From Candidatus Latescibacterota bacterium (GTDB lineage Bacteria; Latescibacterota; UBA2968; UBA8231): DNA of 64,000 nucleotides. Shown here piece after piece: positions 25,451 through 60,379 of this stretch (its first letter is position 1; each line of letters opens with the position of its first letter). The notes under the pieces were generated by a model. The model had not been told where the DNA came from. It worked only from the letters and a program-made list of their open reading frames with translations, and ran no database searches. Made by a program: the position numbers and the translations under genes. The DNA is taken from positions 800,001 to 864,000 of the forward strand of contig CBDCXV010000009.1 in the NCBI GenBank assembly GCA_965223905.1, read 5' to 3'.

Positions 25451-28400
25451 CTGCAGGCAACCCGAACCTTCACCGTCACCGTGCAGGCCTCCAACGAGCC
25501 CCCGCTCGCCGTGCCCTGGCTCTACTGGAGCGACGCGCGCACCGACCGCATCCAGCGCGCTGAGCTCGACGGCAGCGACATTCGCACCCTGGTCGGCGGC
25601 CTCGGACAGCCCCGGGACCTCGCCCTCGACCGGGACGGCGGCCGCATGTACTGGACCGACAGCGGCGCCGACAAGATCCAGCGCGCCCACCTCGACGGGT
25701 CGCGGGTCGAAGACCTGGTGACCGAGGGGTTGAAGGAGCCGTTCGGCCTCGCCCTCGATAAGGCCGGGGGCAAGATCTACTGGAGCGACTGGGGCACCGA
25801 CAAGATCCAGCGGTCCAACCTCGACGGCTCCGAAATCGAAGACCTCGTCGCCACCGGTCTGAACGAACCCTACGGCCTGGCCCTCGACCTGGAGGAAGGC
25901 AAGATCTACTGGACCGACTGGGGGGCGGACAAAATCCAACGGGCAAACCTCGACGGCTCCGAAGTCGAGGACCTGGTCACCGGCCTCAACCAGCCCCGGG
26001 GGATCGCCCTCGATCTGGAGGAGGGCCGCATGTACTGGCCCGACTGGGGCACGGACAAGATCCAGCGGGCGAATCTCGACGGCTCCGGTGTGGAAGACCT
26101 GGTCACCGAGGGCCTGAAGACCTCCCAGGCGATCGCCCTCGACCTGGAGGAGGGCCGCATGTACTGGACCGACTACGGCACCGACAAGATCCAGCGGGCC
26201 CACCTCGACGGCAGCCAGGTCGAAGACCTGGTCACTTCCGGCCTGAAGGAGCCCTACGGCCTGACCCTGGGCGCCGGCCTGCCGGCGCAGATCCTGAAAG
26301 TAGAGGGCGACGCGGCGACCCTGAACCTGGCCGGCCGTTTCCGCGACCCGGAGGGAGGCCCCCTGACCCTCACCGCCACTTCCAGCGACGAGGCGGTCGC
26401 CGCCGCGACTCTGGCCGACTCGGTGCTGACCATCGCCCCGGTCGCCCCCGGACAGGTGACCGTCGCGGTCACCGCCCGCGACCAAGGGGGCCGGCACACC
26501 ACTCTGCCGGTCCCGGTGACCGTGTATCCGGCCAACCGTCCCCCGGTGGCCCGGACCCTGGCCGACCGCAGGATCCGCATCGACCGGCCTGCCCGGGTCG
26601 ATCTGACAAGCGCCTTCACCGACCCGGACGAAACAGACGTGCTGACCTACACGGCCGCCTCGAGCAACGAGGCGGTGGCCACCGCAGCCGTCGAGGGGGT
26701 CGGGGTGCTGATCACCCCCAAGACCACCGGGCAGATGACCATCGCGGTGACCGCCCGCGACCCGGAGGGATTGGAGGCGAGCTTGAGCTTCAGAGTCACC
26801 GTCGAGCCCAAGCCGCCCCCCAAGCCGCCGCCCAGGCCTCCGTCGGACTCCAGCAGCAGCAACGACAGTGGCGGAGGAGGGGGTCCTGTAACCCCTCCGC
26901 GACCGCCGCCACCACCACCACCGCCGCCGCCGCCGCCCCCAGGTCCGAACAACGCCCCCACCTTCGACGAGGGCCCGGCCGCCACCCGCAGCGTCGCCGA
27001 AAACACCGGGGCGAACCGGAACATCCAGCACCCGGTCCGCGCCACCGACGACGGACACCGCCTGACCTACCGGCTCTCCGGCACTGACGAGGCCCGCTTC
27101 GCCGTCGTCTCCGGCAGCGGGCAGCTGCGCACCCGGTCCGGGGTCACCTACGACTTCGAAGCCAAGGACCGCTACGAGGTGACGGTGGAAGTCGACGACC
27201 CCTACGGCGGAACCGACGCCATCGACGTGACCGTGCACGTGGCCGACATCGACGAACCTCCCCAGGCCCCGGGCAGGCCTCAGGTCGACCCGGCTTCATC
27301 CACCAGCCTGACGGTAACCTGGACCGAGCCGGCCAACACCGGCCCCGACGTCCACGACTACGACGTGCAGTACCGCAAGAGCGGCAGCTTCCTCCCCTGG
27401 CCGCACACCGGCCCCGGCACCGCCGCCACGATCCCGGACCTGGAGGTCAACACCCGTTACGAGGTGCAGGTGCGGGCGCACAACGACGAAGGCGAGAGCT
27501 CCTGGTCCGCCTCCGGCTTCGGGACGACCAGCGCCAACCAGCGGCCGGTATTCGACGAATCCGCTCCGACGCGCAGCCTCGACGAGAACACCACCGGAAC
27601 ACAAGACATCGGCGCCCCGGTGAGGGCGACCGATCCGGAGAACACGGCGCTGACCTACCGCCTCTCCGGACGGGACGCGAGCTCCTTCACCCTCGACGAG
27701 AACAACGGCCAGCTGCGCACCCGCCCCGGCGTCGCCTACGACTTCGAAACCCGGAGTCGCTACTCGGTTACGGTGGAGGCAACCGACGAGCCGGGCGGCG
27801 GAACGACCGTCACCGTGACCATCGAACTGATCGACGACGACAACGAGCGGCCGGACCGGCCCGACCGGCCCACGGTGACAGCCTCGACGCTGAACAGTCT
27901 ATCCATTCGCTGGACCGCCCCGGCCAACACCGGTCCCGACATCCACGACTACGACGTGCAGTACAGCGAAGACGGCGGCACCTTCGGCGACTGGCCGCAC
28001 ACCGGACCGGGCACGAGCACGACGATCACCAGCCTGACCGCGGACACGCGCTACCAGGTGCAGGTGCTCGCGCGTAGCCCGGAAGGCGAGAGCCTCTGGT
28101 CCCAATCAGTTGAAGTGAGAACCGTCGCCAACCAGGCGCCCACGTTCAGCGAAGGATCGCGCACCTCGCGCAGTCTGGACGAGAACACCGCCGGGACGAA
28201 CGACATCGGCAACCCGGTGACCGCCACCGACAACGACGGAGGGACGCTGGACTACCGGCTCGCCGGCACCGACGCGGCCCACTTCGACCTCGACGCGAAC
28301 GACGGACAGCTCGAGACCCGATCAGGCGAGACCTACGACTTCGAGGAGAAGGCCCGCTACGAGGTGACGGTGCGCGTCGAGGACGGCCAGGGCGGCAGCA

Positions 28401-31400
28401 ACACCATCGAGGTGACGATCAATCTGAGAGACGAAACCGAACCGCCCGAGGACCCGGCAGCACCCAGCGTCTCGGCGGCCTCCTCGACCAGCCTGACGGT
28501 GACCTGGGCGGAGCCGGCCACTACCGGCCCCGACATCAGCGACTACGACGTGCAGTACCGCGAAGGGGACAGCGGCAGCTTTTCTTCCTGGTCCCACAAC
28601 AGCGCCGAGCGTACCGCCACCATCACCAGCCTGACCCCGGACACCGACTACCAGGTGCAGGTGCTGGCCCGCAACGCCGAAGGAGCCAGCGACTGGTCCT
28701 CCTCCGGCACGGGAAGCACCGACCCCAATCAGCTGCCGGTGTTCACCGACGGGTCGAGCGCCACCCGCCGCCTCGACGAGAACACCACCGGCGTTGAGGA
28801 CGTCGGCGATCTGGTCGGCGCTACCGACCCGGAGAACACCCCCCTGACCTACAGCCTCGAAGGCACGGATGCGGATGCCTTCGCCATTGACACACGCAGC
28901 GGCCAGTTGAGGACCGACGGGGACGAGACCTACGACTACGAGACGAAGCCCCGCTATGTTCTGAGGGTCAAAGCGACCGACGGGCATGGCCGCGATCGCA
29001 CCATCCCCGTGTTAATAAGCCTGAACGACCTCAACGAGGCTCCGGAGTTCATCAGCGACGCGGCCTTCGAGGCGGCGGAGAACCAGACCTTTGCCGGCCT
29101 GGTGGAAGCCGAGGACCTCGATGGCGCCGACCGCGTCACGAACTACACCCTCACCGGCGGGGCCGACCAGGACCGGTTCGAGATCAACAGCGCAGGGGTG
29201 CTGGCCTTCAAGGATGACCCCGACTTCGAGAAACCCGCGGATTCCGGGAGGAACAACACATACAATGTGGCGGTCACGGCCACCGGCGGCTCGGGAGGCC
29301 GCGCCCTGACCGCGGAACAAGCGATCACCGTCACCGTCACCGACGAGAACGAGCCGCCGGCTTTCACCAGCGACGATGCCTTCACGGTCAAGGAAAACGA
29401 GCGCTTCGCCGGCCGGGTTGCTGCCGGGGACGTCGATAGAGACGATGCCATCACCGGCTACGAGGTAACCGGCGGGGCCGACGGGAGCCGGTTCGAGATC
29501 GCCAATACCCACGAGTTGCGCTTCAAGGAGGATCCCGACTTCGAGCGGCCGGCGGATGCGGGAGGAAGCAACGAATACAGCGTGGTGGTAGAGGCCACCG
29601 GCGGCACCGGGATCCGGGAGCTGACCGCGACGCAGACGGTCACCGTCATCGTGGAGGATGTAGACGAGCCGCCGGGCAAGCCGGAGCCGCCGACCATAGC
29701 TGCCAGGAAGCGGAACAGTTTGACCGTGCGCTGGACGGCACCCGCCAACACCGGGCCGGACATTGCGGACTACGGGGGGCAATACGGAATAGCCGGCAGC
29801 GGTACCGTCGAGGGCGGCTGGGACCGCGTCGGCACGGCCACGGAGGCGACGGTCGACAATCTGTCTGCGGACACGGCCTACGAAATACAGGTGCGGGCGA
29901 CGAGTGCGGAAGGGAAGAGCGGCTGGTCGGAACCGGCGGAGGGACGGACCGAAGAGAACCGGGTTCCGGTTTTCGGCGAGGGGCCGAGCACGAGGCGCGA
30001 GCTCGCGGAGAACACGGCCGCCCATGTGAACGTCGGCCTGCCGGTGACGGCAACCGACGCCGACGCCGACAGGCTCATCTACAGCTTGGAACGCCCGGCA
30101 GAGAGCCCGTTCACCATCGATTCACCTAGCGGTCAACTCAAGACGAGAGACGGTGTGGCATACAATCACGAGGAGCAGTCCGAGCATGCGGTAACGGCGC
30201 GCGTGGAGGACGGCCATGGCGGCAGTGCGACGATTGTCGTGACCGTTGCCATTCTGGATGTCGAGAACTCCGCAATAACCGCGGATGCCGGATGGGACCT
30301 GACGGTGGCGGCCGGCGGAACCGGCTATCTGGACGGCACGGGCTCGAGCACCGAGGAAGGTGAGTTGAGCTGGTCCTGGTCGCTGCTCTCCTGGCCGGGA
30401 GACGACCCGCCGGCGCTGGACGACCCGGCCAGCCCGACCCCGTCGTTCGCCGCGGCCGCCGAGGGGACCTACGCCGTTCGGCTCGCGGTCAGCAACGGCA
30501 GCCAGAGCGCCAGCGACGAGGTGCTGGTCACGGTACGGCCATCGGCGGAGGCCGGCCTGCTGGTCACGGCCGACCTGTTGGCGGACACCAACCGGGACGG
30601 CCGGGTGGATCCGTCCGACGAGCCCGGCGAGAACACCTCGACCGAGGCTTCCGGAGCCCTGTTCGGTCTCAATGCGGATGATGATGACGGGGATGGGGTT
30701 CAGGACGGGTGGGACGATCGGGCGAACGGCGATGCGGACCTCCTGGACACGGCGCCCGTGGTGGTGAGGCGGATCTCCGGGCTGCACAGAAACCACTCCG
30801 TCGTGCTGGAAATGGCCTACCAGTCGGTGTTGCAGGACGAATTTGCCTGGACGTCCGTCGGCCCGCAATTGTTCTACCAACGGGCGGACGGCGACGTCGA
30901 GCTGTTGATTGCCGGCGGCGACCTGCGGGCGGAGCTACCGATCGATCAACTGGTTGCCGGCGACCTGCGCCTGTACATCGAGAGCCGGTTCGGACGACAC
31001 TTGCACTTCGATGGAAAGCTCTCGCTCACGCTGACCGTCCGGGACGGTGGATCCGCGATATCGCAGGACAGGGTCGTCCTGCGGGCGAGTCCGATCCTGT
31101 TCTCGCATCATCTGCAGCCCGCCGAGCGGGTGTTCGTGGTGGGAATCCCCGCCTGGGATTCTCTCTCCAACACGGCGCTCCTCGACGCCCTGGAGGCCCA
31201 TCTGCCCGCGTCGACCGAACTGTACCGGCTCGATTCCTCGACATACGATAACGACCGCTGGATTCAGGATTCCATGGAGACCGGCTATGTGCAGCGGCCT
31301 TCCGCCGCCGGAGTGGAGACGGCGGCGGTTCACACGCAGATGCTTCGCGGTCGCGGCCTCCATCGCTTCCTGCCGGAAGAGTATCTGAGCGCGGAAGTGG

Positions 31401-32251
31401 GCTATGTGTACCCCAGCGGCGTATCCGGCACCAGCTTCAACTACGGCGGCAACGTGGAGGTCATTCCACCGTATACACACAACGGCAGAACCTGGTCTTT
31501 CGGGCGCCTGGTGATCGGCGACAATCCAACCCGCCGGGACTGGGCAATGGACCGCTGGCAGTTTGCCTTCTTCGAGTCACAAGGTGTGCAGGGGCCGCCG
31601 ATCGAGGTAGACACGAGCTGGCTCACGGTCTCCCATGTCGATGAGCTGTTCTCGGCGCTTCCCAACCACAATGCGGCGCCGGGAGAGAGACCCTGGGTCA
31701 TCGCCATCGCCTCGCCCGCGCTGGCCGTCGAGTTGCTCGAGGAGGCAGTGGAGCAAGGCTACGGCGACGCGCCCGTATTCGAGGGCCGCGGGTCTGATGA
31801 AACCACGGCACAGGAGATGCTGGCCGACCGCCGCCTCATGGCCGCAAACGACGACGCACAGCGGCGGATCGACACCGTGCGGGAGCGATTGATGACGGAG
31901 GCGGGCCTTGCGGACAGCGACTTCCGGGAAGTGCCGGCCCTGTTCTACGAGTTTTTCCACAATGAACTGTCTTATGGAATGCTGGCTCTGGTTCCCAGCA
32001 TTCAGAACCTGCTCGTGGTCGACGACGTGCTGTTCGTCTCCGACCCGGAGGGGCCGGACGTGGACGGAACGGACATATTGCAACAGGCGACTCTCGATGC
32101 GGTGGAAGGCCTTGGCCTGGAAACCCATTTCGTCGACGTCTACCACAGCTACCACATCCTGGCCGGGGCCATCCACTGCGGGACCAACGCCGAGCGCGCA
32201 GCATCGACCACTTCCTGGTGGCTCGGCGTCGAAACGGAGGACTCCGAATGA
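23036..32251 (+). CDS. giant surface/secreted protein: FlgD-Ig/T9SS-CTD-like, dockerin-like, two YWTD (LDLR class B) propellers, Ig/cadherin/FN3/PKD repeats, C-terminal protein-arginine deiminase
   Basis: QNYPNPFNPST; GDVDGNGRVDLADAL x2; about 12 LYWTD repeats; cadherin (..EN...IG.PV.ATD) and FN3 (SLTVTW..P..Y.VQYR) repeats; PAD motifs DRWIQD, GGNVEVIPP, WLTVSHVDE and GAIHCGTN. Confidence 0.9.
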   Translation: MRPTLRLENPIDTSRILAARRSWASFPGAGGFGWLLAVLGCLAAPGSGAAAAAGAEPLLEGRVLLSSGAPAAGVRVRLFAELGRSLGATADESGYFALPLNALRKAAPLPARLRLGQNYPNPFNPSTIIPYQLPAPARVRLEVFNILGQRVATLVDGARPAGFHTATWNGTDASGRGVGSGVYLYRLLGGGERLTRSMVLLDGPVVPAGGGGSGGAGDPWSGGADGAGAPAAGTGAEADAGSFGGADSWSGAAGTAGHAAESEADPWGGAVGSADGFVSAGHPPGSAAGGAVSGGAADPSDKPAGAGGTGPEKWAPAGGAASGGASAAGPTGGMGARASARGDGRVYGLTVSGPGLVPWVDPAFRVGAGPVEIQVQPLSSRPRGKVAAGGLLGDVDGNGRVDLADALLVASYSEDPTLSLPTGDISLGDVNGDGQVNLADARLIEAYHADPSDPSLPEGIGAPVAAADAPMLYWTDAGSDRIQRARLDGSGVEDVVDSGLVNPRGLAVDSAAGKLYWSDYGSDRIQRSNLDGSDIEDLVTAGLQIPLALALDAAGGKLYWTDNGTDRIQRANLDGTEIEDLVTGLRTPLGLALDAAAGKLYWTDSGADRIQRAELDGSEIEDLVTEGLQIPRGLALDTAGGKLYWADSGTDRIQRANLDGTEIEDLVTTGLGTPRGLALDVSAGKLYWADSSTDRIQRSNLDGSEIEDLVTEGLLSPRGLALARTLSTDNQAPALEPLADRTAATGDSLTLELAGSDPDGDALTYTASSGDEAVATAEAADSLVTLRLLAVGETAVTVTARDPGGLQATRTFTVTVQASNEPPLAVPWLYWSDARTDRIQRAELDGSDIRTLVGGLGQPRDLALDRDGGRMYWTDSGADKIQRAHLDGSRVEDLVTEGLKEPFGLALDKAGGKIYWSDWGTDKIQRSNLDGSEIEDLVATGLNEPYGLALDLEEGKIYWTDWGADKIQRANLDGSEVEDLVTGLNQPRGIALDLEEGRMYWPDWGTDKIQRANLDGSGVEDLVTEGLKTSQAIALDLEEGRMYWTDYGTDKIQRAHLDGSQVEDLVTSGLKEPYGLTLGAGLPAQILKVEGDAATLNLAGRFRDPEGGPLTLTATSSDEAVAAATLADSVLTIAPVAPGQVTVAVTARDQGGRHTTLPVPVTVYPANRPPVARTLADRRIRIDRPARVDLTSAFTDPDETDVLTYTAASSNEAVATAAVEGVGVLITPKTTGQMTIAVTARDPEGLEASLSFRVTVEPKPPPKPPPRPPSDSSSSNDSGGGGGPVTPPRPPPPPPPPPPPPPGPNNAPTFDEGPAATRSVAENTGANRNIQHPVRATDDGHRLTYRLSGTDEARFAVVSGSGQLRTRSGVTYDFEAKDRYEVTVEVDDPYGGTDAIDVTVHVADIDEPPQAPGRPQVDPASSTSLTVTWTEPANTGPDVHDYDVQYRKSGSFLPWPHTGPGTAATIPDLEVNTRYEVQVRAHNDEGESSWSASGFGTTSANQRPVFDESAPTRSLDENTTGTQDIGAPVRATDPENTALTYRLSGRDASSFTLDENNGQLRTRPGVAYDFETRSRYSVTVEATDEPGGGTTVTVTIELIDDDNERPDRPDRPTVTASTLNSLSIRWTAPANTGPDIHDYDVQYSEDGGTFGDWPHTGPGTSTTITSLTADTRYQVQVLARSPEGESLWSQSVEVRTVANQAPTFSEGSRTSRSLDENTAGTNDIGNPVTATDNDGGTLDYRLAGTDAAHFDLDANDGQLETRSGETYDFEEKARYEVTVRVEDGQGGSNTIEVTINLRDETEPPEDPAAPSVSAASSTSLTVTWAEPATTGPDISDYDVQYREGDSGSFSSWSHNSAERTATITSLTPDTDYQVQVLARNAEGASDWSSSGTGSTDPNQLPVFTDGSSATRRLDENTTGVEDVGDLVGATDPENTPLTYSLEGTDADAFAIDTRSGQLRTDGDETYDYETKPRYVLRVKATDGHGRDRTIPVLISLNDLNEAPEFISDAAFEAAENQTFAGLVEAEDLDGADRVTNYTLTGGADQDRFEINSAGVLAFKDDPDFEKPADSGRNNTYNVAVTATGGSGGRALTAEQAITVTVTDENEPPAFTSDDAFTVKENERFAGRVAAGDVDRDDAITGYEVTGGADGSRFEIANTHELRFKEDPDFERPADAGGSNEYSVVVEATGGTGIRELTATQTVTVIVEDVDEPPGKPEPPTIAARKRNSLTVRWTAPANTGPDIADYGGQYGIAGSGTVEGGWDRVGTATEATVDNLSADTAYEIQVRATSAEGKSGWSEPAEGRTEENRVPVFGEGPSTRRELAENTAAHVNVGLPVTATDADADRLIYSLERPAESPFTIDSPSGQLKTRDGVAYNHEEQSEHAVTARVEDGHGGSATIVVTVAILDVENSAITADAGWDLTVAAGGTGYLDGTGSSTEEGELSWSWSLLSWPGDDPPALDDPASPTPSFAAAAEGTYAVRLAVSNGSQSASDEVLVTVRPSAEAGLLVTADLLADTNRDGRVDPSDEPGENTSTEASGALFGLNADDDDGDGVQDGWDDRANGDADLLDTAPVVVRRISGLHRNHSVVLEMAYQSVLQDEFAWTSVGPQLFYQRADGDVELLIAGGDLRAELPIDQLVAGDLRLYIESRFGRHLHFDGKLSLTLTVRDGGSAISQDRVVLRASPILFSHHLQPAERVFVVGIPAWDSLSNTALLDALEAHLPASTELYRLDSSTYDNDRWIQDSMETGYVQRPSAAGVETAAVHTQMLRGRGLHRFLPEEYLSAEVGYVYPSGVSGTSFNYGGNVEVIPPYTHNGRTWSFGRLVIGDNPTRRDWAMDRWQFAFFESQGVQGPPIEVDTSWLTVSHVDELFSALPNHNAAPGERPWVIAIASPALAVELLEEAVEQGYGDAPVFEGRGSDETTAQEMLADRRLMAANDDAQRRIDTVRERLMTEAGLADSDFREVPALFYEFFHNELSYGMLALVPSIQNLLVVDDVLFVSDPEGPDVDGTDILQQATLDAVEGLGLETHFVDVYHSYHILAGAIHCGTNAERAASTTSWWLGVETEDSE

Positions 32252-35610: not shown

Positions 35611-37992
35611 ATGCGGCCGACCTTGCGACTGGAGAACCCCATCGATACCTCCCGCACTCTGGCGGCCCGGCGCTCCTCGGCCTTTTTCCCGGGTGCCGGC
35701 GGTTTCGGATGGCTGCTGGCGGTGCTCGGCAGTCTCGCGGCACCGGGGTCAGGCGCCGCCGACGCCGCCGGGGCCGAGCCGCTGCTGGAGGGTCGGGTGC
35801 TTCTGTCCTCGGGCCCCCCGGTGGCCGGGGCCCGGGTGCGGCTGTTCGTCCAGGGCGACCTGGGGCGCTCGCTGCGGGCCACGGCGGATGAGAGCGGCTA
35901 CTTCGCCTTTCCCCTGAAGGCCCTGCGCCGTGCCGCGCCCCTTCCGGCGCGCCTGCACCTGGGCCAGAACTACCCCAACCCGTTCAATCCCTCGACCATC
36001 ATCCCCTATCAGGTACCGGTGGCGACCCGTTTGCGCCTGGAGGTGTTCAACATCCTGGGTCAGCGGGTGGCGACCCTGGTCGACGGGGAGCGCCCGGCCG
36101 GTTTCCACACGGCGACCTGGAACGCGACCGATGCCTCGGGGCGAGGCGTGGGCTCGGGGGTGTACCTGTACCGTCTGCTGGGGGGCGGGGAGCGCCTGAC
36201 GCGGTCGATGGTGCTGCTGGACGGACCGGGGGTCCCGGGGGGTGGAGGGGGTTCGGGCGGGGCGAGGGCTTCGGCCCGCGGCGAGGAGAAGCTCTACGGA
36301 CTAATAATCTCGGGTCCTGGGCTGGTCCCCTACGTCGACCCGGCCTTCCGGGTGGGGGCCGGTCCGGTCGAGATCCAGGTCGAAACGCTGTCCCGCCTGC
36401 CCCGCGCAAAGGTGGCCTCCGGGGGTCTGCTGGGCGACGTCAACCGGGACGGCCGGGTCGACCTCGCCGACGCCCTGCTCATCGCCTCCTACAGCGAGGA
36501 TCCGACCCTGTCCCTTGCCAACGGCGACATCACCCTGGGAGACGTCAACGGGGACGGCCAGGTCGATCTCGCCGACGCCCGGCTCATCGAGGCCTACCAC
36601 GCCGATCCGTCCGACCCGTCGCTGCCGGAAGGGATCGGCGCCCCGGTGGCCGCGGCGGATGCGCCGATGCTCTACTGGACGGACGCGGACGGCGACCGCA
36701 TTCAGCGCGCAAACCTGGACGGCTCCGGGATCGAGGATGTCGTCGACAGCGGCCTGGTCAATCCGCGCGGCCTGGCCGTGGACTCAGCGGCCGGCCAGCT
36801 CTACTGGACCGACTACGGCAGCGACCGCATCCAGCGGTCCAACCTCGACGGCTCCGAAGTGGAGGACCTGGTGACCACCGGTCTGCGCATCCCCTTGGGG
36901 CTGGCCCTGGACACGGTCGCGGGCCAGCTCTACTGGACCGACAATGGCACGGACAAGATCCAGCGCGCCAATCTCGACGGCTCCGAAGTGGAAGACCTCG
37001 TCACCGGCCTGCAGACGCCGTTGAGCCTGGCTCTCGACACGGCCGCGGGCAAGCTCTACTGGACCGACAGCGGCAGCGACCGGATCCAGCGGGCCAACCT
37101 CGACGGCTCCGAAGTGGAGGACCTGGTGACCACCGGCCTGGACCTTCCCCGGGGGCTGGCCGTGGACGCAGCCGGCGGCAAGCTCTACTGGACGGACAAC
37201 GGCACCGACCGGATCCAGCGCGCCAACCTCGACGGCTCCGAGGTGGAAGAGCTGGTGACCGAGGGACTGCACACGCCCCGGGGCCTGGCCCTCGATCCGG
37301 ACGCGGGCAAGCTCTACTGGACGGACAGCGGCACCGGCAAGATCCAGCGGTCCAACCTCGACGGCTCCGGAATCGAAGACCTGGTGACCGAGGGCCTGCT
37401 GAGTCCGCGGGGCCTGGCCCTGGTGCGAACCGCTGGGGCGGTCGGCAACCGGGCCCCCACCTTGGCGCCACTGGCCGACCGGACCGCGGCGGCCGGCGAC
37501 ACCCTGACCCTGGCGGCGGCCGCCAGCGACCCGGACGGCGACGCCCTGACCTACGCGGCTTCATCGAGCGACGAGGCGGTAGCCCGGGTCGAGGCGGCCG
37601 ATTCCCTGGTGACCGTCTACCCGCTGTCCGCGGGCCGGGCCACGATTGCGGTGACCGCCCGCGACCCGGAGGGCCTGGAGGCGGTGCAGCGCTTCGCCGT
37701 CCTCGTCGGAGCCGCGAACCTCGGGCCCGTCCACCGGCTCTACTGGACGGACGCGGAGGCGGACCGGATCCGGCGGTCTCACCTGGACGGCTCCGGGGTG
37801 GAGGACGTCGTCGACAGCGGCCTGGTCAACCCGCGCGGCCTGGCTCTGGACGCAGTCGCCGGCAAGCTCTACTGGACCGACTACGGCAGCGACCGGATTC
37901 AACGGTCCAACCTCGACGGCTCTCAAGTGGAAGACCTGTCCACTGTTTTGGTATTTCATACCATTTCCTACCCAACCGTAAAGTTTCTGTAA
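35611..37992 (+). pseudogene. paralogous YWTD-repeat surface protein, interrupted at ~37938 by the integrated element
   Basis: Same N-terminal architecture as 23036; the YWTD repeat breaks at ..NLDGSQVEDL| into AT-rich unrelated sequence. Confidence 0.85.
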
Positions 37993-38123: not shown

Positions 38124-39293
38124 ATGCAACGTCCCAAAATGCTCTCGGCAACCTTCGTGCGAAACGTGAACCGGTCCGGCCGCTACGGCGACGGGCGCGG
38201 CGGCTTCGGGCTCTCGCTGCTGGTCAAGCCTAGGGAGGACAACGGGCGGCTGTCCAAGACGTGGAGCCAGCGGCTGCGAATCGACGGGGAGCTGACCAAC
38301 GTCGGGCTCGGGCCGTATCCGCTAGTGACGCTCAAGGAGGCGCGGGACAAGGCGCTGACCAATCGCCGCGCCGTCGAGCAGGGCTCAGACCCCCGCGCCC
38401 AACGCGCCGCCTCCCGCGTTCCCACCTTCGCCGCCGCCGCCGAGGCCGTCATCCGGATTCACGCCGAGACCTGGAAGAACGGGGGCCGGTCGGAGGACAA
38501 CTGGCGCAAGAGTCTCGGCGAGTACGCCATGCCGAAGCTCGGGCGCAAGCCGGTGGACAAGATCACCACGTCGGACGTGCTGGCCGTCATCACGCCGATC
38601 TGGTCGTCGCGGCGGGAGACGGCCAAGCGGGTGCGCCAGCGCATCTCGGCGGTGATGAAGTGGGCGGTTGCCGAGGGCCACCGCGAGGACAACCCGGCCG
38701 GCGACGCCATCCAGGCGGCCTTGCCGAAGAACGAGACGGTGAAGGTCCACTACAAAGCCTTGCCGCACGGCGAGGTAGGCGCGGCCCTGCGCACGATGCG
38801 GGGCGTCGACACCTGGCCGCTGAAGAAGCTGGCTCTCGAGTTCCTCGTGCTCACGGCGACGCGCTCCAATGAAGTCCGGGGGGCGCGCTGGGACGAAATC
38901 GACGGGGAGGCGTGGACGATCCCGGCCGAGCGCATGAAAAAGGGCAGGGAGCACCGGGTGCCGCTGGCTCGGCGAGCCCTGGCGGTGCTGGAAGAGGCGC
39001 GCGCCTTCGACGACGGCTCGGGGCTGGTGTTCCCCAGCTCGCGCGGCGGCAAACAGTCGGATGGGTCGCTGTCGCAGTTCGTCAAGCACCTGGGCATTGC
39101 CGCGGTGCCGCACGGGTTCCGGAGCAGCTTCCGCGATTGGGCCGCCGAGTGCTCGGCCGCGCCCCGGGAGGTCTGCGAACTCGCCCTGGCCCACGTCAAC
39201 GACGACCAGACGGAAGCGGCCTACCGGAGAAGCGATCTGTTCGATCTGCGCCGCAAGCTGATGGAGGATTGGGAGGCGTATCTGGAGGTCTGA
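38124..39293 (+). CDS. tyrosine integrase, P4/IntA-like with arm-binding domain
   Basis: YGDG..GLSL.V, GLGPYPLVTL.EAR arm domain; catalytic ATRSNE, MKKG.EH.VPL, PHGFRSSF, LAH and AY.R. Confidence 0.95.
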   Translation: MQRPKMLSATFVRNVNRSGRYGDGRGGFGLSLLVKPREDNGRLSKTWSQRLRIDGELTNVGLGPYPLVTLKEARDKALTNRRAVEQGSDPRAQRAASRVPTFAAAAEAVIRIHAETWKNGGRSEDNWRKSLGEYAMPKLGRKPVDKITTSDVLAVITPIWSSRRETAKRVRQRISAVMKWAVAEGHREDNPAGDAIQAALPKNETVKVHYKALPHGEVGAALRTMRGVDTWPLKKLALEFLVLTATRSNEVRGARWDEIDGEAWTIPAERMKKGREHRVPLARRALAVLEEARAFDDGSGLVFPSSRGGKQSDGSLSQFVKHLGIAAVPHGFRSSFRDWAAECSAAPREVCELALAHVNDDQTEAAYRRSDLFDLRRKLMEDWEAYLEV

Positions 39294-43120: not shown

Positions 43121-43611
43121 TCAAGCCGGCGGCCCGCTTCTCAGCACGGTCACGGTCCCTTCCTCGTCGGTGAGGGTCAGGGTGTCCCCTGCGACCTCGA
43201 AGAAAAGCGGCGTGTCCTCGATGAGGCCGGCCTCCATGTCGGCGAGGATCTCCTCCCGCGCGGCGGCGATCTCCTCGCCGGTCAGCTTCTCGCCGGTGAT
43301 CTCCTCCATCGCGGCCACCAGCAGGGCCACCAGCTCGTCGACCAGCTCCTCCTGCGTCTGCCCGTTGAAGGTCAGGGTGGAAGGATCGACGGTGACCCGC
43401 AGGGAGTCCCCGTCCGTCTCCCACGTCCCCGAGTACTCGACGGTCAGGGTGTCGGTGCCCAGGGGGATCGTGGCGGACACCGACATACGGCATCGTCGCC
43501 CAGGTGCAGGATCAGGCCCTCGCCGTCCTGTTCGGTCTCCCACGTCCCGACCTGCGCCGTGCTTGCGCCGGCCAGCATCCCGACGAGGGCGAGGGTGATA
43601 GCTGCTCTCAT
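43121..43611 (-). CDS. acidic exported protein (lipocalin-like GTW motifs), one frameshift near 43490
   Basis: RBS AAGGAG; signal peptide MRAAITLALVGMLAGASTA; GTWETE/GTWETD; continues in a second frame. Confidence 0.6.
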
Positions 43612-43625
43612 GATGATTCTCCTTG

Positions 43626-43684
43626 CGGTTTCTTGGACGCGGCGGAAGTGCCGCGCCCTCATCAGCCCGTTGATTCGGGGACCG
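43626..43684 (-). ncRNA. type III hammerhead-ribozyme-like RNA (AA-insertion variant), copy 1
   Basis: CGGUC|CCCG-AAUCAA-CGGG-CUGAUGA-GGGCGCGGC-ACUUCC-GCCGCGUCC-AA-GAAA-CCG. Confidence 0.75.
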
Positions 43685-43721
43685 ATTCAGGGGGAGCGCC
43701 GGCAAACGCTCCCCCTTGCCA

Positions 43722-45745
43722 TCAACCGCCGTCGCCGGGGTTGGGATCGAAGCCGGGAGGCGTCCAGCGCCGCACGCGATCCTTGGCCCGGTCGGACAGC
43801 ACTTCGCCGTCCGGGTTGCGGAAGATCGCCTCTGCGTGCTCGGCCAGCTCGCCCTTCTTGTAGCCCCTGAACCCATCGGCCCATTCCTCGTCGCCGGTTT
43901 CGGCCATCGTCGTGAGGATGGCTTTTTTGGGGATGCGGTTCCAGAACACCTCCTTGGACAGCCGGACCTCGGCAAACGGCGGCCCGAGGCGCTCGATGGC
44001 GGCTTCCAGCTCGACGGCCCTGCCGGTCTCGATGCCGAGTTGGTTGGTCAGCATCGAGGCGACGCAGAAGGCGAGCACGTCCTGCTTGTCGTTCTCGGGG
44101 ACCTCGCAGAAGGCTTGCCAGCACTCCCGCACCGTGCGCTCCTCCTTCGTGGCCAGCCACGGCTCGTGGCGTTGGGTGAGGGCCGCCGCGATCTCCCGAA
44201 ACCGCGCCTCGCCGGGGTTGTTTTGGGCGAACCCGTCGTCGTTGGTGCGCGGCGGCGGATGCGTCGCCGTGACCTCTGCGGAAAGCTCCAGCGCGCGGCG
44301 GTCGTAGTAGAGGCGGTCGCCCAGCATCTGCCGGCCAAGCTGGAAGATGAGCAGGTCCACCGCAACGAGGGGCCGGGTGGCCAGTTCCGCCTTGACTATT
44401 GAGGTTCGGATGTGCTTCAGGTCGTCGGCCAGCGCCTGCGACACCCCGGCGTCCTTGCGGGCCTCGGCCTCCGGGTTGGACGCTGAGGGGGCCTTCGTCC
44501 GGGGCTTCACGGTGCCGTTGCCGGCGTGGCCGTTGCTGCCCGTTTCGACCACCGCCTGAGCGGCCGCCGCGTCGTCGGGACGGATCAGGCCGCTTTCCGC
44601 CCGGACCGTGCCCCCGTGGGCCAGGTAGATGCACACGCCGGACGCGGCCATCTGCTCGGGAAGGAACGCGGTCCGCTGCTCGACGGCGCCGGTGATCTCG
44701 TTGTGCTGCCGCTCCAGCCTTTCGTATTCGTCCTCGTCCCACTCGTCGCCGCCGTCGTCCTCGTTGTCGTCGTACGCCTCGTGCAAGGTGCCCATCTTCT
44801 CCTCAAGCTCTTCCAGCTTGGCGGCCTCCTCGGGCGTAGGCTCCGGCTCGGGGCGTGAAAGCGGCCGTAGCCGGCCAGCGCGGTGTAGTCGTACTCGAGC
44901 AGCACGTCGACCCACTTCCAGCCCTCCTTTTTCAACTCGGCGGCGACCTCGTTCAGCTTGCTTGTCGCCAGCGTTTTGAGCAGTTGCGGGTCGTCGATGT
45001 AGACGCCGGCCTCGTCGTTTTCCGCGAACAGGTCCCGCGTGACGGTGCCGCCTGCGGCCTCGTACGCCTCGACGCCGACGAACTGCACCGCCGCCGATCC
45101 GCCGTTCAGTTTCTCCTCGACCAGCGCCGAGCGGATCGAGCGCGGGTTGACGTGATAGTGGCCCTCTACCGCCTTGAAACACGTCAACTGCGCCTCGGGG
45201 TCCGGCGACACGGTGAAGGCCATCAGGGCCTCCAGGTTGAGCTCCTCGTCCCGGTAGGCTTGCAGCAGGTCGGGGTGGACGGTCGCCAGCCGCAGCCGCT
45301 TCTCGACGGTTACCGGGGTCACGCCGAAGCGCTCGGCGATCTCCTCGACGGTATGCCCGGCCTCGTGCAGCCCGCGGAAGGCTTCCACCTGGTCGGCGGG
45401 GTGCATGTCGGCGCGCACCACGTTCTCGACAAGGCTGATCTCCCCGATCTCGTCCTTGTCGCCCATGATGAGGCACGGTACCGGGTAGGTGTCGCGGTCG
45501 ATCTTGCCGGCTGCGGCCAAGCGCGTCAGCGCCCCGAGGCGACGGCCCCCGGCCACGACCTCGTAGGCGTCGTCGGCCTCGGGGTGTCCGGACAGCAGGA
45601 CGTTGAGGTTCTGACGGACCCCATGAGCCTCGATGGACGCTTCGAGCGAATCGTCGTCAGCCTGCGACGCGGGGGTGGTGCGGACGTTGTGTTGAGACAG
45701 GCACAGCTGTCTCAGCGGAATCATCTCGATGTGGGATACGGTCAT
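43722..45745 (-). CDS. long ParB/RepB/Spo0J-family protein (plasmid leading-region type), one frameshift at ~44852
   Basis: L.ASI.AHGVRQNL.V, YEVVAGGRRL.AL, SL.EN..RADMHPADQ.EAF, IAERFG...V.KRL.LA; the shift lies in a C4 run. Confidence 0.85.
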
Positions 45746-45824
45746 GATTCGAATTCTCACCTCTCAGAGTCGTTAAGAGGGGCGGACGCGCCCTGGTATA
45801 CTCGGGCACGTCCGCCCCCCCGGT

Positions 45825-46205
45825 TTAGTCCAGCGGTTGCAGCCGCCGCGCCTCGATCTCGACGATCGAGTGCGGGTTGTCGTCGTCGTCCCGCCACGAG
45901 TGCGACGCCAGCCTGCCGGTGACGAACACCGGCGACTGCTTGCGGAGGCCGCAGGCGCCGTATTCGGCCTCCTTGCCGCGAGCGATGACGTTGAAGTAGT
46001 GGCATTCGTCCTGCCATTCGCCGTCGCGGTCGCGGTAGGAGCGGTGGACGACGAGCCGCAGGGACAGACGCGGCTGGCCCTCGTCGGTGATGCGGTACTC
46101 GGGGTCCATGTGCAGCCTGCCGGCGATGCACACCTGATTGACGGCGGGCATGGGCAGGGCCGGACGCGGCTCCTGTCGGGTCTGTTCGGTCATGGGGTTC
46201 TCCAT
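45825..46205 (-). CDS. ssb: single-stranded DNA-binding protein
   Basis: N.V.IAGRL..DPE.R, DGEWQDE..YFNV, LRK.S.VFVTGRL...SW, VEI.A..LQ.L; lacks the acidic tail. Confidence 0.88.
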   Translation of the reverse strand: MENPMTEQTRQEPRPALPMPAVNQVCIAGRLHMDPEYRITDEGQPRLSLRLVVHRSYRDRDGEWQDECHYFNVIARGKEAEYGACGLRKQSPVFVTGRLASHSWRDDDDNPHSIVEIEARRLQPLD

Positions 46206-46321
46206 TTGGGTAAGGGGGGACAGAAGCGCACAGGCGAGCCCGTGCGCCCCTCTCGTTGGGATTCAGCCGGTTCTCCGGTATTTGTCCGGCAGCCGCCTGA
46301 TGGCTTTCTGGCCCCGGTGCA

Positions 46322-46873
46322 TCACGAAGTCGGCCCCGGCCTCAGCTGCCTGCCGGTAGACGTCGGCGATAGTCGGCCCGGCCCCGTGCCGATAGCGTCC
46401 GAACCGCCACTTGAAATGGAGGTTGCGGCCCGCGAAGCCTTCGACGGCGGGGTGGGGTCGACCTCGATGATCTGCGCGACGGACAGGTAGACTTCCGCCG
46501 CGTCGGCCAGCATCTCCCGCACTTGAGGGTCATAGGTCCGCTTGGTGAAGTCCGTCACCCGGTACAGGTCCAGCGGGAAGTCCAACGGGGCGGGGTCATG
46601 GTACACGAGCCCGTTCCGCTGCTCGTCGAAGCGGGCGATCCACACCCGCGCCTCGGCGGGAAGCAGCCCGGCCAGCAGGTTGCTGTTCTCGATGAATTGC
46701 CCGTTGTCGTAGGCGATCAGGTGAACGCCGCCGGTATCGCAGAAACAGCCGGTGGCCCGGTTCGCGGCCAGCGCCGCAGGGCAGGAGCGGCACTTGGCGA
46801 TCTGCCCGTGCTTGATGTCCCCGTCCCGGATCTCGACGGTGACACTCAGCGCGGGGGTCAGGTTGTTGCCCAT
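46322..46873 (-). CDS. hypothetical protein
   Basis: RBS GAGGAGG; C..CP.ALA motif; the 3' end may be frameshifted. Confidence 0.55.
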   Translation of the reverse strand: MGNNLTPALSVTVEIRDGDIKHGQIAKCRSCPAALAANRATGCFCDTGGVHLIAYDNGQFIENSNLLAGLLPAEARVWIARFDEQRNGLVYHDPAPLDFPLDLYRVTDFTKRTYDPQVREMLADAAEVYLSVAQIIEVDPTPPSKASRAATSISSGGSDAIGTGPGRLSPTSTGRQLRPGPTS

Positions 46874-46937
46874 TCCGTTCTTTCCTCCTCAGCGTGATGG
46901 GCAGGGGGGCCGGCCCCAAACCGGCCCCCCTTGCCCT

Positions 46938-47117
46938 CTATGCAGCCGTGCGGCGAGCGGTGCGCCGCTGACGGGGGGTCGGGATGCCGTAGCGCCGGCA
47001 GAGCCGCCCGAAGCTGGACGGGGCGATCCCGAGGGCAGCGGCCGCGTCGCCGGTCGTGCGGTAGATCCGCGCCGCTTTCTCGATGCGCTCGGGCGGGTAG
47101 GCGGTTTGTTTGCTCAT
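46938..47117 (-). CDS. small Fis-like HTH protein
   Basis: MSKQTAYPPERIEKAARIYRTTGDAAAALGIAPSSFGRLCRRYGI; ATGA overlap with radC. Confidence 0.65.
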   Translation of the reverse strand: MSKQTAYPPERIEKAARIYRTTGDAAAALGIAPSSFGRLCRRYGIPTPRQRRTARRTAA

Positions 47118-47845
47118 ACGATGCCCGTCTCCTTCAGGCTGCAGAAATCCGAGCGGGCGATGATGATGTGATCGAGGACCTCGATGCCCATGATGAGCCC
47201 GGCCTCCCGGAGCCTGTGCGTCAGGTCGATGTCGTCCTTGGAGGGCGACACGTCCCCGGAGGGGTGATTGTGGGCGAGGATGACCGACGCCGCGCACTTG
47301 GCCACGCCGACCCGGAACACTTCGCGGGGGTGGACGATGGAGGCCGACAGCGAGCCGATGCTTACGACCTCCTTGTGGATCACCTGATTGCGGGCGTTCA
47401 GATACAGGCAGACGAAGAACTCTTTCGGTTCGTCCTTGATGTCGGCCAGCAGCGGAATCGTCTCGGTGGGGGTGCTGATGACGGGCAGGATGCCGATGCC
47501 GCGATCCAGCGCACGGCGGGCGATCTCGACGGCGGCCAGCAGACGCGCCGCGCGGCAGGACGTGACGCCGCGCAAGGCAGCCAGCTTGTCGACGCTCAGG
47601 TTGACCAGCTCACCGAAGTCGAAGCGCTCGGCGATCTCGCGGGCGTCCTCCTCGGTGCTGCCCAAGGCCACGGCGAGCAGCTCCGAATCGCGCATGGACT
47701 CGGCACCGTCCGAAATCAGCCGCTCGCGGCACGTAGGAGTCGCCAGAGGGCCGTCGTACACCGGGCCGGTCTCTGCTGATACCCTGTCGGCCCCGTGCGC
47801 CGGACGGGCGCAGGTGACGCGGTCTGCGGGGGTGTGCATCTTCAT
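47114..47845 (-). CDS. radC: RadC-family JAB/MPN-domain protein
   Basis: RERL...G.E...D.ELLA, KEFF..LYLN..NQVI, VHPREVF, AHNHPSGD.SPS..D and VLDHIII motifs. Confidence 0.93.
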   Translation of the reverse strand: MKMHTPADRVTCARPAHGADRVSAETGPVYDGPLATPTCRERLISDGAESMRDSELLAVALGSTEEDAREIAERFDFGELVNLSVDKLAALRGVTSCRAARLLAAVEIARRALDRGIGILPVISTPTETIPLLADIKDEPKEFFVCLYLNARNQVIHKEVVSIGSLSASIVHPREVFRVGVAKCAASVILAHNHPSGDVSPSKDDIDLTHRLREAGLIMGIEVLDHIIIARSDFCSLKETGIV

Positions 47846-47928
47846 GGCTATCCATTCTCCTTGACAGAGGGTGATGGTGTGTTGTGGGAGGGGGGGACCT
47901 TGCGCGGTCCTCCCCTCCCTTTTTGTGC

Positions 47929-48708
47929 CTACTCCAACAGCCGGCAGGCGATGCGGCCCAAGACTTCGCGGACCGCGTTCGTCGGCTCGGCGTGGATGAT
48001 CTCCTGCAGCTCGGCGGCGACCTCGGCCCGGACCTCGACGCAGACCTCGCCGCGCACTTCGTCGCGGATCCGCTGCCTGTGCCGGGTGGCCTCGGCGATG
48101 CGCTCCTGTTCCTCGACCACATCCCGCGCCCGCCGTACCTGTGCCTTCCAGTGCTCGCCGTTGAGGGTGTGCAGCCCGTTCTCGTACTGCGCCCGCGCCG
48201 GATGGCGGAAGCGCCGGAAGTCGAACGGTACCCAGTTGGCGAAGTCGGCCGCCGCCGCCTTCAGGATTTTCCCGGCGTCCATGCCGTGCTCGGGGTGCAA
48301 CTGAACCTCCAGCCGCTTGTCGAGAGGACGGGCGGCCAGTTCCAGCGCCACCCGCTCCAGCACGTCGAAGTCGCCGGCCCGGTCATAGGCGTCGATGGCG
48401 TTCTGAATCCAGTACTTGCACTGCACGTCGTCGGCCATCTTCACGGCGGTATCAAACTCGATGTCGTCCAGATCGCCGCCGGCGCGGATCTCGGCAGCCC
48501 GCCGCAGCCGCACCTTGCCCCCGTCGAAGCGGAACAGGTAGGCCGGCAGGGTCCACGGTTTCGCCTCGGCCGCCAGCGCGATGCAGGCCATCCGATCCCC
48601 GGCCAGCACGGCGGTGCGGTGCAGCTTGAGGAGCGTGTTATACGACCGCTTCACGGCGTCCCCTTGCCTGTCGTCAGCCCCGGCCCCGTTGCCGTTGGTG
48701 TGCTTCAT
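47929..48708 (-). CDS. hypothetical protein
   Basis: ATG after AAAGGA directly downstream of hammerhead-like copy 2; 259 aa with C-terminal coiled coil. Confidence 0.6.
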   Translation of the reverse strand: MKHTNGNGAGADDRQGDAVKRSYNTLLKLHRTAVLAGDRMACIALAAEAKPWTLPAYLFRFDGGKVRLRRAAEIRAGGDLDDIEFDTAVKMADDVQCKYWIQNAIDAYDRAGDFDVLERVALELAARPLDKRLEVQLHPEHGMDAGKILKAAAADFANWVPFDFRRFRHPARAQYENGLHTLNGEHWKAQVRRARDVVEEQERIAEATRHRQRIRDEVRGEVCVEVRAEVAAELQEIIHAEPTNAVREVLGRIACRLLE

Positions 48709-48723
48709 CGGTTTTCGTCCTTT

Positions 48724-48784
48724 CCGGTTTCTTGCCCCCCGCCCGATTGCAGGAGGCTCGTCAGCCCGTCGATTCGGGGACCGA
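48724..48784 (-). ncRNA. type III hammerhead-ribozyme-like RNA (AA-insertion variant), copy 2
   Basis: UCGGUC|CCCG-AAUCGA-CGGG-CUGACGA-GCCUCCUGC-AAUCGG-GCGGGGGGC-AA-GAAA-CCGG. Confidence 0.75.
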
Positions 48785-48830
48785 GCAGCGCCGGTGCCTG
48801 AGAGGGAGACAGGCCCCGGCGCTGAGATGC

Positions 48831-49472
48831 CTACCGGTACTTCAGATAGGCCGGTTTTCCGACCGAAACGGGCGGACCGAGCTTGAGGGGGAAGGATTCG
48901 CCGGCAAACTCCCGGCAGGGCGCGCACAGGCCGTCCGCATCGTCGGTGCCAGCAAGGCGGGTGTCGCAGCGAGGGCAGACCTTGCGCGAGCTGGCAGGGT
49001 CGGCAGCGCCGTCGACGAGGCCGACGGCCGTCAGGCCGGTCAGGTCCTCCAGCAGCGGCACCGCGGCGCGGTAGCGCTCGATCTTCATGGCCATCATCAA
49101 CGCAAGGCACTTGCCCTTTTCGCCGATCAGGTCCAACAGCGCTAGCACGATGGGCGCCTCGCAATCCTCCTCGGCCCATCCCGAGCCATTCAGGAAGCCC
49201 ATGAGCAGGTGAGCCGGCAGACGGTCCTGAACCTCGACGGACAGCCGCAGGCCGCCGTGGGAAGCCGTAGCGACGAGGTCGACGCCATCGGCGAGGGTGT
49301 CCGTGTGCTCGATCAAGCCCCACGGCGAAGACTTCGAGCAGCGGACAGGGTTGGAGAACTCGCTGTGCGAGGATCTTGTCGCCTTCGGCCAGGCCGACGA
49401 GGCAGGACACACCAGCATGTCGGCGCGCTCAATGAGCTTCAGGCCGCAAGTGCAGTGTCCGGGTTTACGCAT
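48831..49472 (-). CDS. DUF7007-like mobile-element protein
   Basis: SPWG.I......ADG...V.TASHGG..LS and W.EEDCE motifs; flanking Cys pairs. Confidence 0.65.
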   Translation of the reverse strand: MRKPGHCTCGLKLIERADMLVCPASSAWPKATRSSHSEFSNPVRCSKSSPWGLIEHTDTLADGVDLVATASHGGLRLSVEVQDRLPAHLLMGFLNGSGWAEEDCEAPIVLALLDLIGEKGKCLALMMAMKIERYRAAVPLLEDLTGLTAVGLVDGAADPASSRKVCPRCDTRLAGTDDADGLCAPCREFAGESFPLKLGPPVSVGKPAYLKYR

Positions 49473-49682
49473 GGTTTCAATCCTTTTCCGGTTGTGAGAC
49501 TCACGATGCCGCAGCGCCGGCATCGCAGGGTGTAGACGTTGGCCGGCACGCTGACCGAAGCCCAATCGCTAACCGTCCCGGCACAGGCAGGACCACACCC
49601 AACCGGGAACAGCGGCCCGCTTGCGCTCCATCGCATCGCGGGAGCGCCGCAGGGTTACGAGGGGTTTGTTGTCCATTCGGGA

Positions 49683-60037: not shown

Positions 60038-60379
60038 ATGGAAACGGCTCAAACAGCCTGGGTGGGCGTGGGCCTGTTCGGCGCCTTTATCGGCTTCGCG
60101 GTGGGTTCTTTTTGCGAATGGATGGAAGGTTGGAGGGACAAACTCCGAATGCTCACCGCGGCTCTGGGCGGCGCCCTCGGCACCCTGACCTACTTCTTGA
60201 TCTGGACCCCGTGGACAATCGACGAAATCTGCGGCTTCCACCCGGTCGTCTTGCTCCTGGCAGCGTTGATCGGGGGGCTTATCGGCTGGGTTCACGGACC
60301 GAAAAAGACCGATGAGGAACGATGCAAGGCCTCCGTAGAAGCCCACCGGGAGGCGCTGGGGAGGGACGGGCTGATGTAA
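60038..60379 (+). CDS. small 3-TM membrane protein, paralogue B
   Basis: Inverted paralogue of 58623-58979; shares a perfect 49-bp block. Confidence 0.65.
   Translation: METAQTAWVGVGLFGAFIGFAVGSFCEWMEGWRDKLRMLTAALGGALGTLTYFLIWTPWTIDEICGFHPVVLLLAALIGGLIGWVHGPKKTDEERCKASVEAHREALGRDGLM

Follow-up and report, generated by a model that had tools for sequence, protein, structure and literature searches.

A hammerhead-like RNA motif with two inserted adenosines in the same-strand gene array of an integrated mobile element from a Candidatus Latescibacterota bacterium

In a 64,000-nt stretch of the genome of a Candidatus Latescibacterota bacterium (assembly GCA_965223905.1, contig CBDCXV010000009.1, positions 800,001 to 864,000; hereafter the window), two intergenic segments of the minus strand, copies A and B, carry a motif laid out like a type III hammerhead ribozyme with two extra adenosines (AA) between stem II and the conserved G12. 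The motif lies in the same-strand gene array of an integrated mobile element and recurs in three further places; it is a real, selected RNA of hammerhead design, with a conserved sequence, a stem II that stays paired while its letters change, a fixed strand and a recurrent genomic placement. That it still cleaves itself at the predicted C, 3' of CGGU, is plausible, with a probability that we put at about 0.45.

Five copies of one RNA motif

Read 5' to 3' on the minus strand, copies A and B both consist of CGGU, a C, CCCG, a 6-nt loop, CGGG, the core CUGA(U/C)GA, a 9-bp hairpin with a 6-nt loop, AA, GAAA and CCG (Table 1). This type III anatomy and the cut positions that follow from it had been proposed in a preliminary description of this DNA and agree with the sequence letter by letter, and the extra AA reported there for both copies is present in all five copies found. 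Two of its details needed refinement: stem II does keep all nine pairs in both copies, one of them in copy A and two in copy B being G-U, and position 7 is indeed the sole difference in the core, but the copies also differ at position 5 of loop I (A vs G). The window contains two matches to the joint pattern of stem I 3' arm, core, unconstrained hairpin and AAGAAACCG, and 100 dinucleotide shuffles contain none; the counts for the 26-nt 5' half of the motif are likewise two and zero. Furthermore, a home-made relaxed type III descriptor (three stems of at least 4 bp, CUGANGA, GAAA 0-2 nt past stem II, A15.1-U16.1 and a non-G at position 17) gave just three matches in the 7.9-Mb genome, each of them a motif copy bearing the 2-nt insertion; the reversed genome gave none, and neither did 48 Mb of sequence simulated with a first-order Markov model. 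A chance match within this genome is thus unlikely.

Two more copies, C and D, lie on the same contig about 415 kb away, in a paralogous element; copy C has a canonical core and copy D has CUAACGA, in which G5 is replaced by A. The four copies of the source genome were used to build a covariance model (R1), which scored copy A at 91.3 bits and copy B at 87.1 bits and found copy E at 65.8 bits in a second genome of the genus. In searches of 101 relatives and of 151 genomes of the phylum, strong scores were confined to the source genome (G000; four copies, 81.8-97.7 bits) and this congener (G002); the covariance-model search of relatives added one member and yielded nothing convincing beyond the genus. 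The remaining R1 matches at E<=0.01 scored 22.5-23.6 bits and came from three genomes of the 101-relative set and six of the 151-genome set. Four such weak matches (L009, L011, L012 and L013) were rejected as members because the arrangement of core, hairpin and GAAA is absent in all of them, and L012 appears, by eye, to fall within a coding region. A window match at 60235-60307 (11.1 bits) was also discarded, as it lies inside long open reading frames (ORFs) and has no core. A pattern scan of the genome collection returned one locus (L014), and 18 metagenome loci with the 18-base stem I pattern were rejected, all scoring at most 25 bits with R1 and having no downstream half of the motif. Among viral contigs the stem I pattern gave no loci, the core pattern gave 25 of which R1 confirmed none, and a search guided by the 259-amino-acid protein encoded next to copy B gave no confirmed locus; the plasmid collection yielded neither a DNA nor a protein match and the phage collection just two trivial ones (E=0.9).

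The five copies vary very unevenly along their length. At the 35 positions outside stem II and its loop any two of them differ at 0-2 sites, against 5-17 of the 24-30 positions of stem II plus its loop, a contrast that reaches Fisher p <0.001 in six of the ten copy pairs. The constraint on these 35 positions also holds for copies A and D, whose flanking coding DNA is unrelated to that of the others: its identity of about 0.53 is what unrelated sequence shows in the flank alignment. In four of the five copies the hammerhead letters C3 U4 G5 A6 N7 G8 A9, G12 A13 A14, A15.1-U16.1 and C17 occur in order, with C3-A9 directly between stems I and II and core variability confined to N7; copy D is the exception, and the U-A pair (A15.1-U16.1) and the unpaired C17 are present in all five. 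The published consensus consists of the same letters, with H at position 17 (C3 U4 G5 A6 N7 G8 A9, G12 A13 A14, A15.1-U16.1, H17; PMC3088659). It is difficult to account for so strong a constraint, falling on just the hammerhead positions, if the RNA neither is a hammerhead nor was one until very recently.

The covariation claimed in the preliminary description is borne out for stem II and not for stems I and III. In stem II both sides have changed at five of the nine pairs and 98.8% of the cells, or 97.7% in another tally, still pair across the five copies, values that none of 500 shuffles reached, and registers slid along the alignment pair at 32-46%; the G10.1-C11.1 pair is unchanged in all five copies. 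In stems I and III all eight pairs are possible in every copy and none ever varies. In addition, stem II holds six G-U cells across the copies, at which the complementary strand would have A-C mismatches. This places the structure on the mRNA-sense strand, shared with all neighbouring genes, and makes it an RNA element. We regard it as highly improbable that the motif is instead a DNA-level element, for instance a promoter or operator that works on double-stranded DNA or on a folded single strand, a single-strand origin, or a site of recombination or of cassette joining. Copies A and D do coincide with gene cassettes that are present or absent among related elements, and the mobile element encodes an SSB and an integrase, as such a site might lead one to expect; however, the six G-U pairs tie the hairpin to the mRNA-sense strand, the motif keeps one orientation and a fixed distance from the start codon, a sigma-70-like promoter match is absent at both window copies, and neither an inverted-repeat partner nor a target duplication was noticed.

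Core departures and the case for cleavage

From these observations we infer a junction fold, a catalytic activity and a physiological consequence that would fit together as follows. The motif would be a cis-acting RNA within a polycistronic mRNA of the integrated mobile element, built on the type III hammerhead plan, and would cleave itself 3' of the C after CGGU, perhaps slowly or only under particular conditions. The upstream message would then end in a G+C hairpin and a 2',3'-cyclic phosphate, and the downstream message would begin with a 5'-OH and two compact hairpins placed right before the ribosome-binding site. Stability and translation of the adjoining genes would be uncoupled after cleavage, and the two products could meet different fates. 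To permit this, the inserted A residues would need to bulge from the stack of stem II on G12-A9. The genomic setting, typical of hammerheads, points towards a hammerhead as well.

Several observations weigh against cleavage. In all five copies G12 A13 A14 do not follow immediately on C11.1, as the AA intervenes. Copy D has A at G5 and a compensated stem II nonetheless, and G5 is essential for the hammerhead according to established mutagenesis. Since stems I and III never vary, the three-way junction is left without covariation support. Stem I has merely 4 bp, next to a stem II of 8-10 bp with variable loops, and no consistent complementarity or pairing for a contact of stem I or loop I with loop II could be recognised by eye in the five copies; natural fast hammerheads depend on loop-loop contacts (PMC3088659). 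The family as known is tiny, with five copies in two genomes of one genus. Lastly, the hammerhead families of Rfam 15 gave no match in the window at the gathering threshold, in 6.5 kb at E<=10 or in 91 nt centred on copy A at E<=10, and RF00008 gave none over the whole 7.9-Mb genome. Filters based on hidden Markov models may contribute to these missing matches; no curated family covers the motif.

Natural core variants reported for hammerheads comprise A6C, A6a, U13a, U15.1-A16.1, U3-A8, U10.1-U11.1 and a 2a/2b insertion from a saltern (PMC3088659); none of these variants is an insertion between 11.1 and 12, so that a natural precedent for the AA was not found among them, which is a further point on the negative side. 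Searches of the open-access literature, supplementary figures aside, turned up neither an insertion between 11.1 and G12 nor hammerheads in the context of integrative and conjugative elements, RadC or SSB. In this regard, minizymes, in which a flexible unpaired linker replaces stem II between A9 and G12 with activity kept (PMC544870), and the many natural hammerheads with an extra nucleotide between A9 and 10.1 (PMC4209133) can be taken, by analogy, as partial precedents for irregular or unpaired residues at the border of stem II and the core.

The same departures could also mark a loss of activity. An ancestral intergenic hammerhead might have gained the AA and become catalytically crippled or inactive, its RNA being kept for its fold in a non-catalytic role, for instance as a 5' stabiliser, a ribosome standby site or insulator for the gene downstream, or a binding site for a protein or RNase of the element or the host. 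The AA in all five copies and the compensated fold of copy D with its A at G5 would be accounted for in this way, as would the invariance of stems I and III and of loop I, which is expected of sequence-specific recognition rather than of mere pairing, and the consistent end of the motif 2-8 nt ahead of a run resembling a Shine-Dalgarno sequence; moreover, inactive hammerhead-like RNAs occur in nature, as is mentioned in PMC3088659. On the other hand, once catalysis is lost there is no obvious force that would hold all eleven catalytic letters while the flanks and stem II diverge, and no candidate binding protein was identified. We consider this loss of activity a serious possibility, if a doubtful one.

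For copies C and D, and for B once a further stem III pair is added, the predicted junction fold is the minimum free energy (MFE) structure; for copies A and E it is 2.1-2.3 kcal/mol less stable than the MFE structure. In copy A the hammerhead-like fold has -27.2 kcal/mol vs -29.3 kcal/mol for the MFE structure, which contains an alternative hairpin, GGUCC/GGGCU. Despite its A at G5, copy D retains the fold, with a C-G pair of stem II changed in compensation to A-U. Across the copies the hexaloop of the 4-bp stem I is invariant but for one A/G site, and loop II has 5-9 nt and a variable sequence. The motif could be read as an unrelated structured regulatory RNA of a 5' untranslated or intergenic region, whose stem-loop, variable hairpin and short closing helix resemble the hammerhead core by coincidence. 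The alternative hairpin of copy A, the lack of covariation at the junction and the absence of a match to the Rfam hammerhead models would suit such a coincidence, and very many windows were screened at the first stage, so that rare look-alikes are to be expected somewhere. Nevertheless, neither the reversed genome nor the 48 Mb of simulated sequence contains a single instance of the full joint arrangement (CUGANGA immediately 5' of a hairpin, GAAA 2 nt past it, a closing A-U pair, an unpaired C and complementary arms on the flanks), and the setting is typical of bacterial hammerheads, and we find this explanation unlikely.

Returning to a motif that still cleaves, an extension of the proposal is that the AA defines a distinct hammerhead subclass, in which the two As dock on the short stem I and replace the loop-loop contact, or in which cleavage is conditional on a protein or a small molecule. 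With conditional cleavage the mobile element could time the processing of its early operon. We judge this extension to be quite improbable. The wider claim of the preliminary description, namely that the copies form a variant ribozyme family, survives in part: the motif is a repeated, strand-specific RNA with the right core letters in four of five copies, it sits in the spacers of a same-strand array and it is absent from Rfam, and what speaks against the claim is the A at G5 in copy D, the AA beside G12, the invariance of stems I and III and the occurrence of just five copies in two genomes.

The mobile element and its intergenic spacers

The region is an integrated mobile element, marked by a tyrosine integrase (Table 1). 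Its earlier designation as the 'leading region' of a conjugative element was an assumption; no relaxase or type IV secretion gene was seen among the ORFs scanned, and no systematic search was made for them. Further along the element, Pfam identified DUF7146, an AAA_25 ATPase and a DNA methylase. The five copies of the motif sit in three colinear mobile elements that are paralogous or orthologous to each other. The second element of the source genome (contig C9, about 415,500-441,200) is colinear with window positions of about 35,100-61,900, with 68-97% identity in blocks, and the two differ by cassettes at the two junctions that hold copies A and D. Copies B, C and E share one junction, between the DUF7007 gene and the gene for the 259-amino-acid protein, orthologues of which come right after copies C and E. 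In the window copies B and A flank a block of five genes, and in the paralogous element copies D (5') and C (3') bracket the DUF7007 orthologue. Copy D, accompanied by an additional gene of 116 codons, is confined to that second element, and copy A and the 163-amino-acid gene next to it are present only in the element of the window and not in the two related ones. The 163-amino-acid gene has an N-terminus that by eye resembles a signal peptide, and a Shine-Dalgarno-like AGGAG lies 4 nt after copy A. The 259-amino-acid protein is present in two of 168 genomes of the phylum and has 14 homologues among 5.8 billion proteins, of which P0004-P0014 are 55-76% identical to it.

Table 1. Positions of the motif copies, spacer hairpins and genes in the window
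Feature	Position	Strand	Basis or remark
Copy A, whole motif	43626-43684	minus	read from sequence; relaxed-descriptor match
Copy A, stem III	5' arm 43684-43681; 3' arm 43629-43626	minus	
Copy A, C17	43680	minus	predicted cut between 43680 and 43679
Copy A, stem I	43679-43676 / 43669-43666; loop 43675-43670	minus	
Copy A, CUGAUGA core	43665-43659	minus	
Copy A, stem II	43658-43650 / 43643-43635; loop 43649-43644	minus	
Copy A, inserted AA and GAAA	AA 43634-43633; GAAA 43632-43629	minus	
Copy B, whole motif	48783-48725, or 48784-48724 with a fifth stem III pair (U-G)	minus	
Copy B, stem III 5' arm	48783-48780 (plus U 48784)	minus	
Copy B, C17	48779	minus	predicted cut between 48779 and 48778; stem I begins at 48778
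Copy B, CUGACGA core, 9-bp stem II, AA, GAAA, CCG(G)	ending at 48724	minus	
G+C-rich hairpin without U tract	43689-43716	minus	fold; between upstream stop codon (43724-43722) and copy A; not scored as terminator
G+C-rich hairpin with C/U-rich loop	48786-48824	minus	fold; between DUF7007 stop codon (48833-48831) and copy B
Tyrosine integrase with arm-binding domain	38124-39293	plus	Pfam
163-amino-acid gene	43121-43612	minus	ORF list; sub-threshold Pfam match to DUF5640 only; directly downstream of copy A
ParB helix-turn-helix domain protein	44585-45760	minus	Pfam
SSB gene	45825-46205	minus	Pfam; between copies B and A
183-amino-acid ORF		minus	between copies B and A
RadC gene	47114-47845	minus	Pfam; between copies B and A
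259-amino-acid gene	47929-48708	minus	no Pfam family; directly downstream of copy B
DUF7007 gene	48831-49565	minus	Pfam; upstream of copy B

In all five copies, 2-8 nt separate the end of the motif from a purine run resembling a Shine-Dalgarno sequence, and 13-20 nt separate it from the start codon. Neither a sigma-70-like promoter nor an intrinsic terminator was predicted at either window motif, which fits a long polycistronic RNA. A stable G+C hairpin without a U tract is found just past the stop codon in every spacer of the minus-strand array, whether or not it holds the motif, including the spacers at 47846-47928, 46874-47113, 46206-46321 and 45761-45824; the hairpin upstream of the motif was for this reason rejected as a part of it. 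These spacer hairpins could, without any involvement of the motif, protect mRNA 3' ends or serve as attenuators. Those upstream of copies B, C and E share conserved loops rich in C and U (window 48786-48824, L001 about 1536-1576 and L010 about 1575-1612, all on the minus strand). Two assignments were tried for them and rejected: the hairpin upstream of copy B scored 22.5 bits as the small RNA CcsR1 (RF02791), against a gathering score of 65.3, and the duplex energies of the loops as anti-Shine-Dalgarno partners were not better than those of shuffled loops.

Some other features of the region were noted along the way. The ParB-domain ORF (44585-45760) and an ORF without Pfam family at 43722-45476 share about 890 nt, read in different frames of the minus strand, and this overlap across 43722-45760 may be a matter of gene boundaries or of a frameshift. 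The window's DUF7007 gene shares its first six codons with the paralogue and then has about 40 extra, cysteine-rich codons (49330-49470, minus strand) before an SPWG motif, the point at which the paralogue continues. On the plus strand, a 3071-codon open frame (23036-32251) fills 9 kb upstream of the element, and a 793-amino-acid ORF with LDL-receptor class B, NHL and dockerin domains contains tandem repeats of about 129 bp (36798-37423), which show as staggered BLAST matches against the paralogous region.

Significance and comparison with known systems

Ribozymes that punctuate the operon of a mobile element have already been published for canonical hammerheads (PMC3088659). What would be new is a core architecture with AA before G12 that no curated model captures, as well as the lineage and the type of element. 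If the motif cleaves, the accepted hammerhead core would be widened, since stem II and G12, the general base, could then be two residues apart, and strict-core filters such as those of published surveys (PMC3088659) would be seen to discard functional members. In that case an uncultivated lineage and an element of the integrase/SSB/RadC type would also join the mobile DNAs that cut long transcripts by ribozyme, which would help in finding out what purpose bacterial hammerheads serve. If the motif does not cleave, it offers a clean natural case of a ribozyme scaffold kept for another purpose.

Like the type III hammerhead (RF00008, clan CL00010), the motif has an open stem III and closed stems I and II, CUGANGA 5' of stem II, the G10.1-C11.1 pair, GAAA leading into A15.1-U16.1 and a GUC triplet, and variation of its core is limited to position 7 in four of five copies. 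It departs from that class in the AA between C11.1 and G12, in having no Rfam match and no recognisable loop-loop contact, in its 4-bp stem I with a near-invariant hexaloop beside a stem II of 8-10 bp, and in the A at G5 of one copy. RiboJ-type insulators are engineered type III hammerheads of proven cleavage, placed directly 5' of a ribosome-binding site so that the mRNA receives a defined, structured leader; the motif occupies the same position, but it is natural and its cleavage is predicted only.

The radC RNA motif is a structured RNA near radC, ssb and integrase-type genes of mobile DNA, with a fold other than that of the hammerhead-like motif and nothing ribozyme-like about it. Its model (RF01754; Weinberg et al. 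2010, PMC2864571) gives no match in the window, which sets the two motifs apart. An irregular border between stem II and G12-A9 is shared with the hammerheads of viroids and of Penelope-like elements that have insertions between A9 and G10.1 (PMC4209133) and with the minizymes (PMC544870); in these the 5' strand is affected or stem II is removed, whereas the motif has a 2-nt bulge of the 3' strand right before G12.

The idea that canonical hammerheads occupy homologous places was rejected. Within the phylum, canonical RF00008 hammerheads were found in none of the 151 genomes, and type II hammerheads (RF02276) in three of them at E<=0.01, one over the cut-off of 37 bits and none in this genus. 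Canonical type II hammerheads of two other genomes of the phylum, both on the minus strand, are L061 1501-1573 (49.8 bits) and L062 1501-1563 (36.9 bits), the latter apparently with one extra U between A9 and G10.1.

The multi-copy hammerheads published from prophages are reportedly mostly of type II with pseudoknots. Many bacterial hammerheads lie near integrases, and multiple copies flank single genes or short blocks of varying identity; a triple arrangement around ardA of Agrobacterium cleaved in vitro, and the hammerheads of prophage-like regions have been proposed to process long transcripts into shorter mRNAs (PMC3088659). According to a review, the processing of polycistronic RNAs by hammerheads is a suggestion still to be proven (PMC6765202). 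Unlike those prophage hammerheads, which have consensus cores and cleaved in vitro (Perreault et al. 2011, PMC3088659), the motif described here has the AA and a putative cleavage activity; like them, its copies are co-directional, flank variable genes or blocks, lie near an integrase and are close to anti-restriction or DNA-handling genes (PMC3088659).

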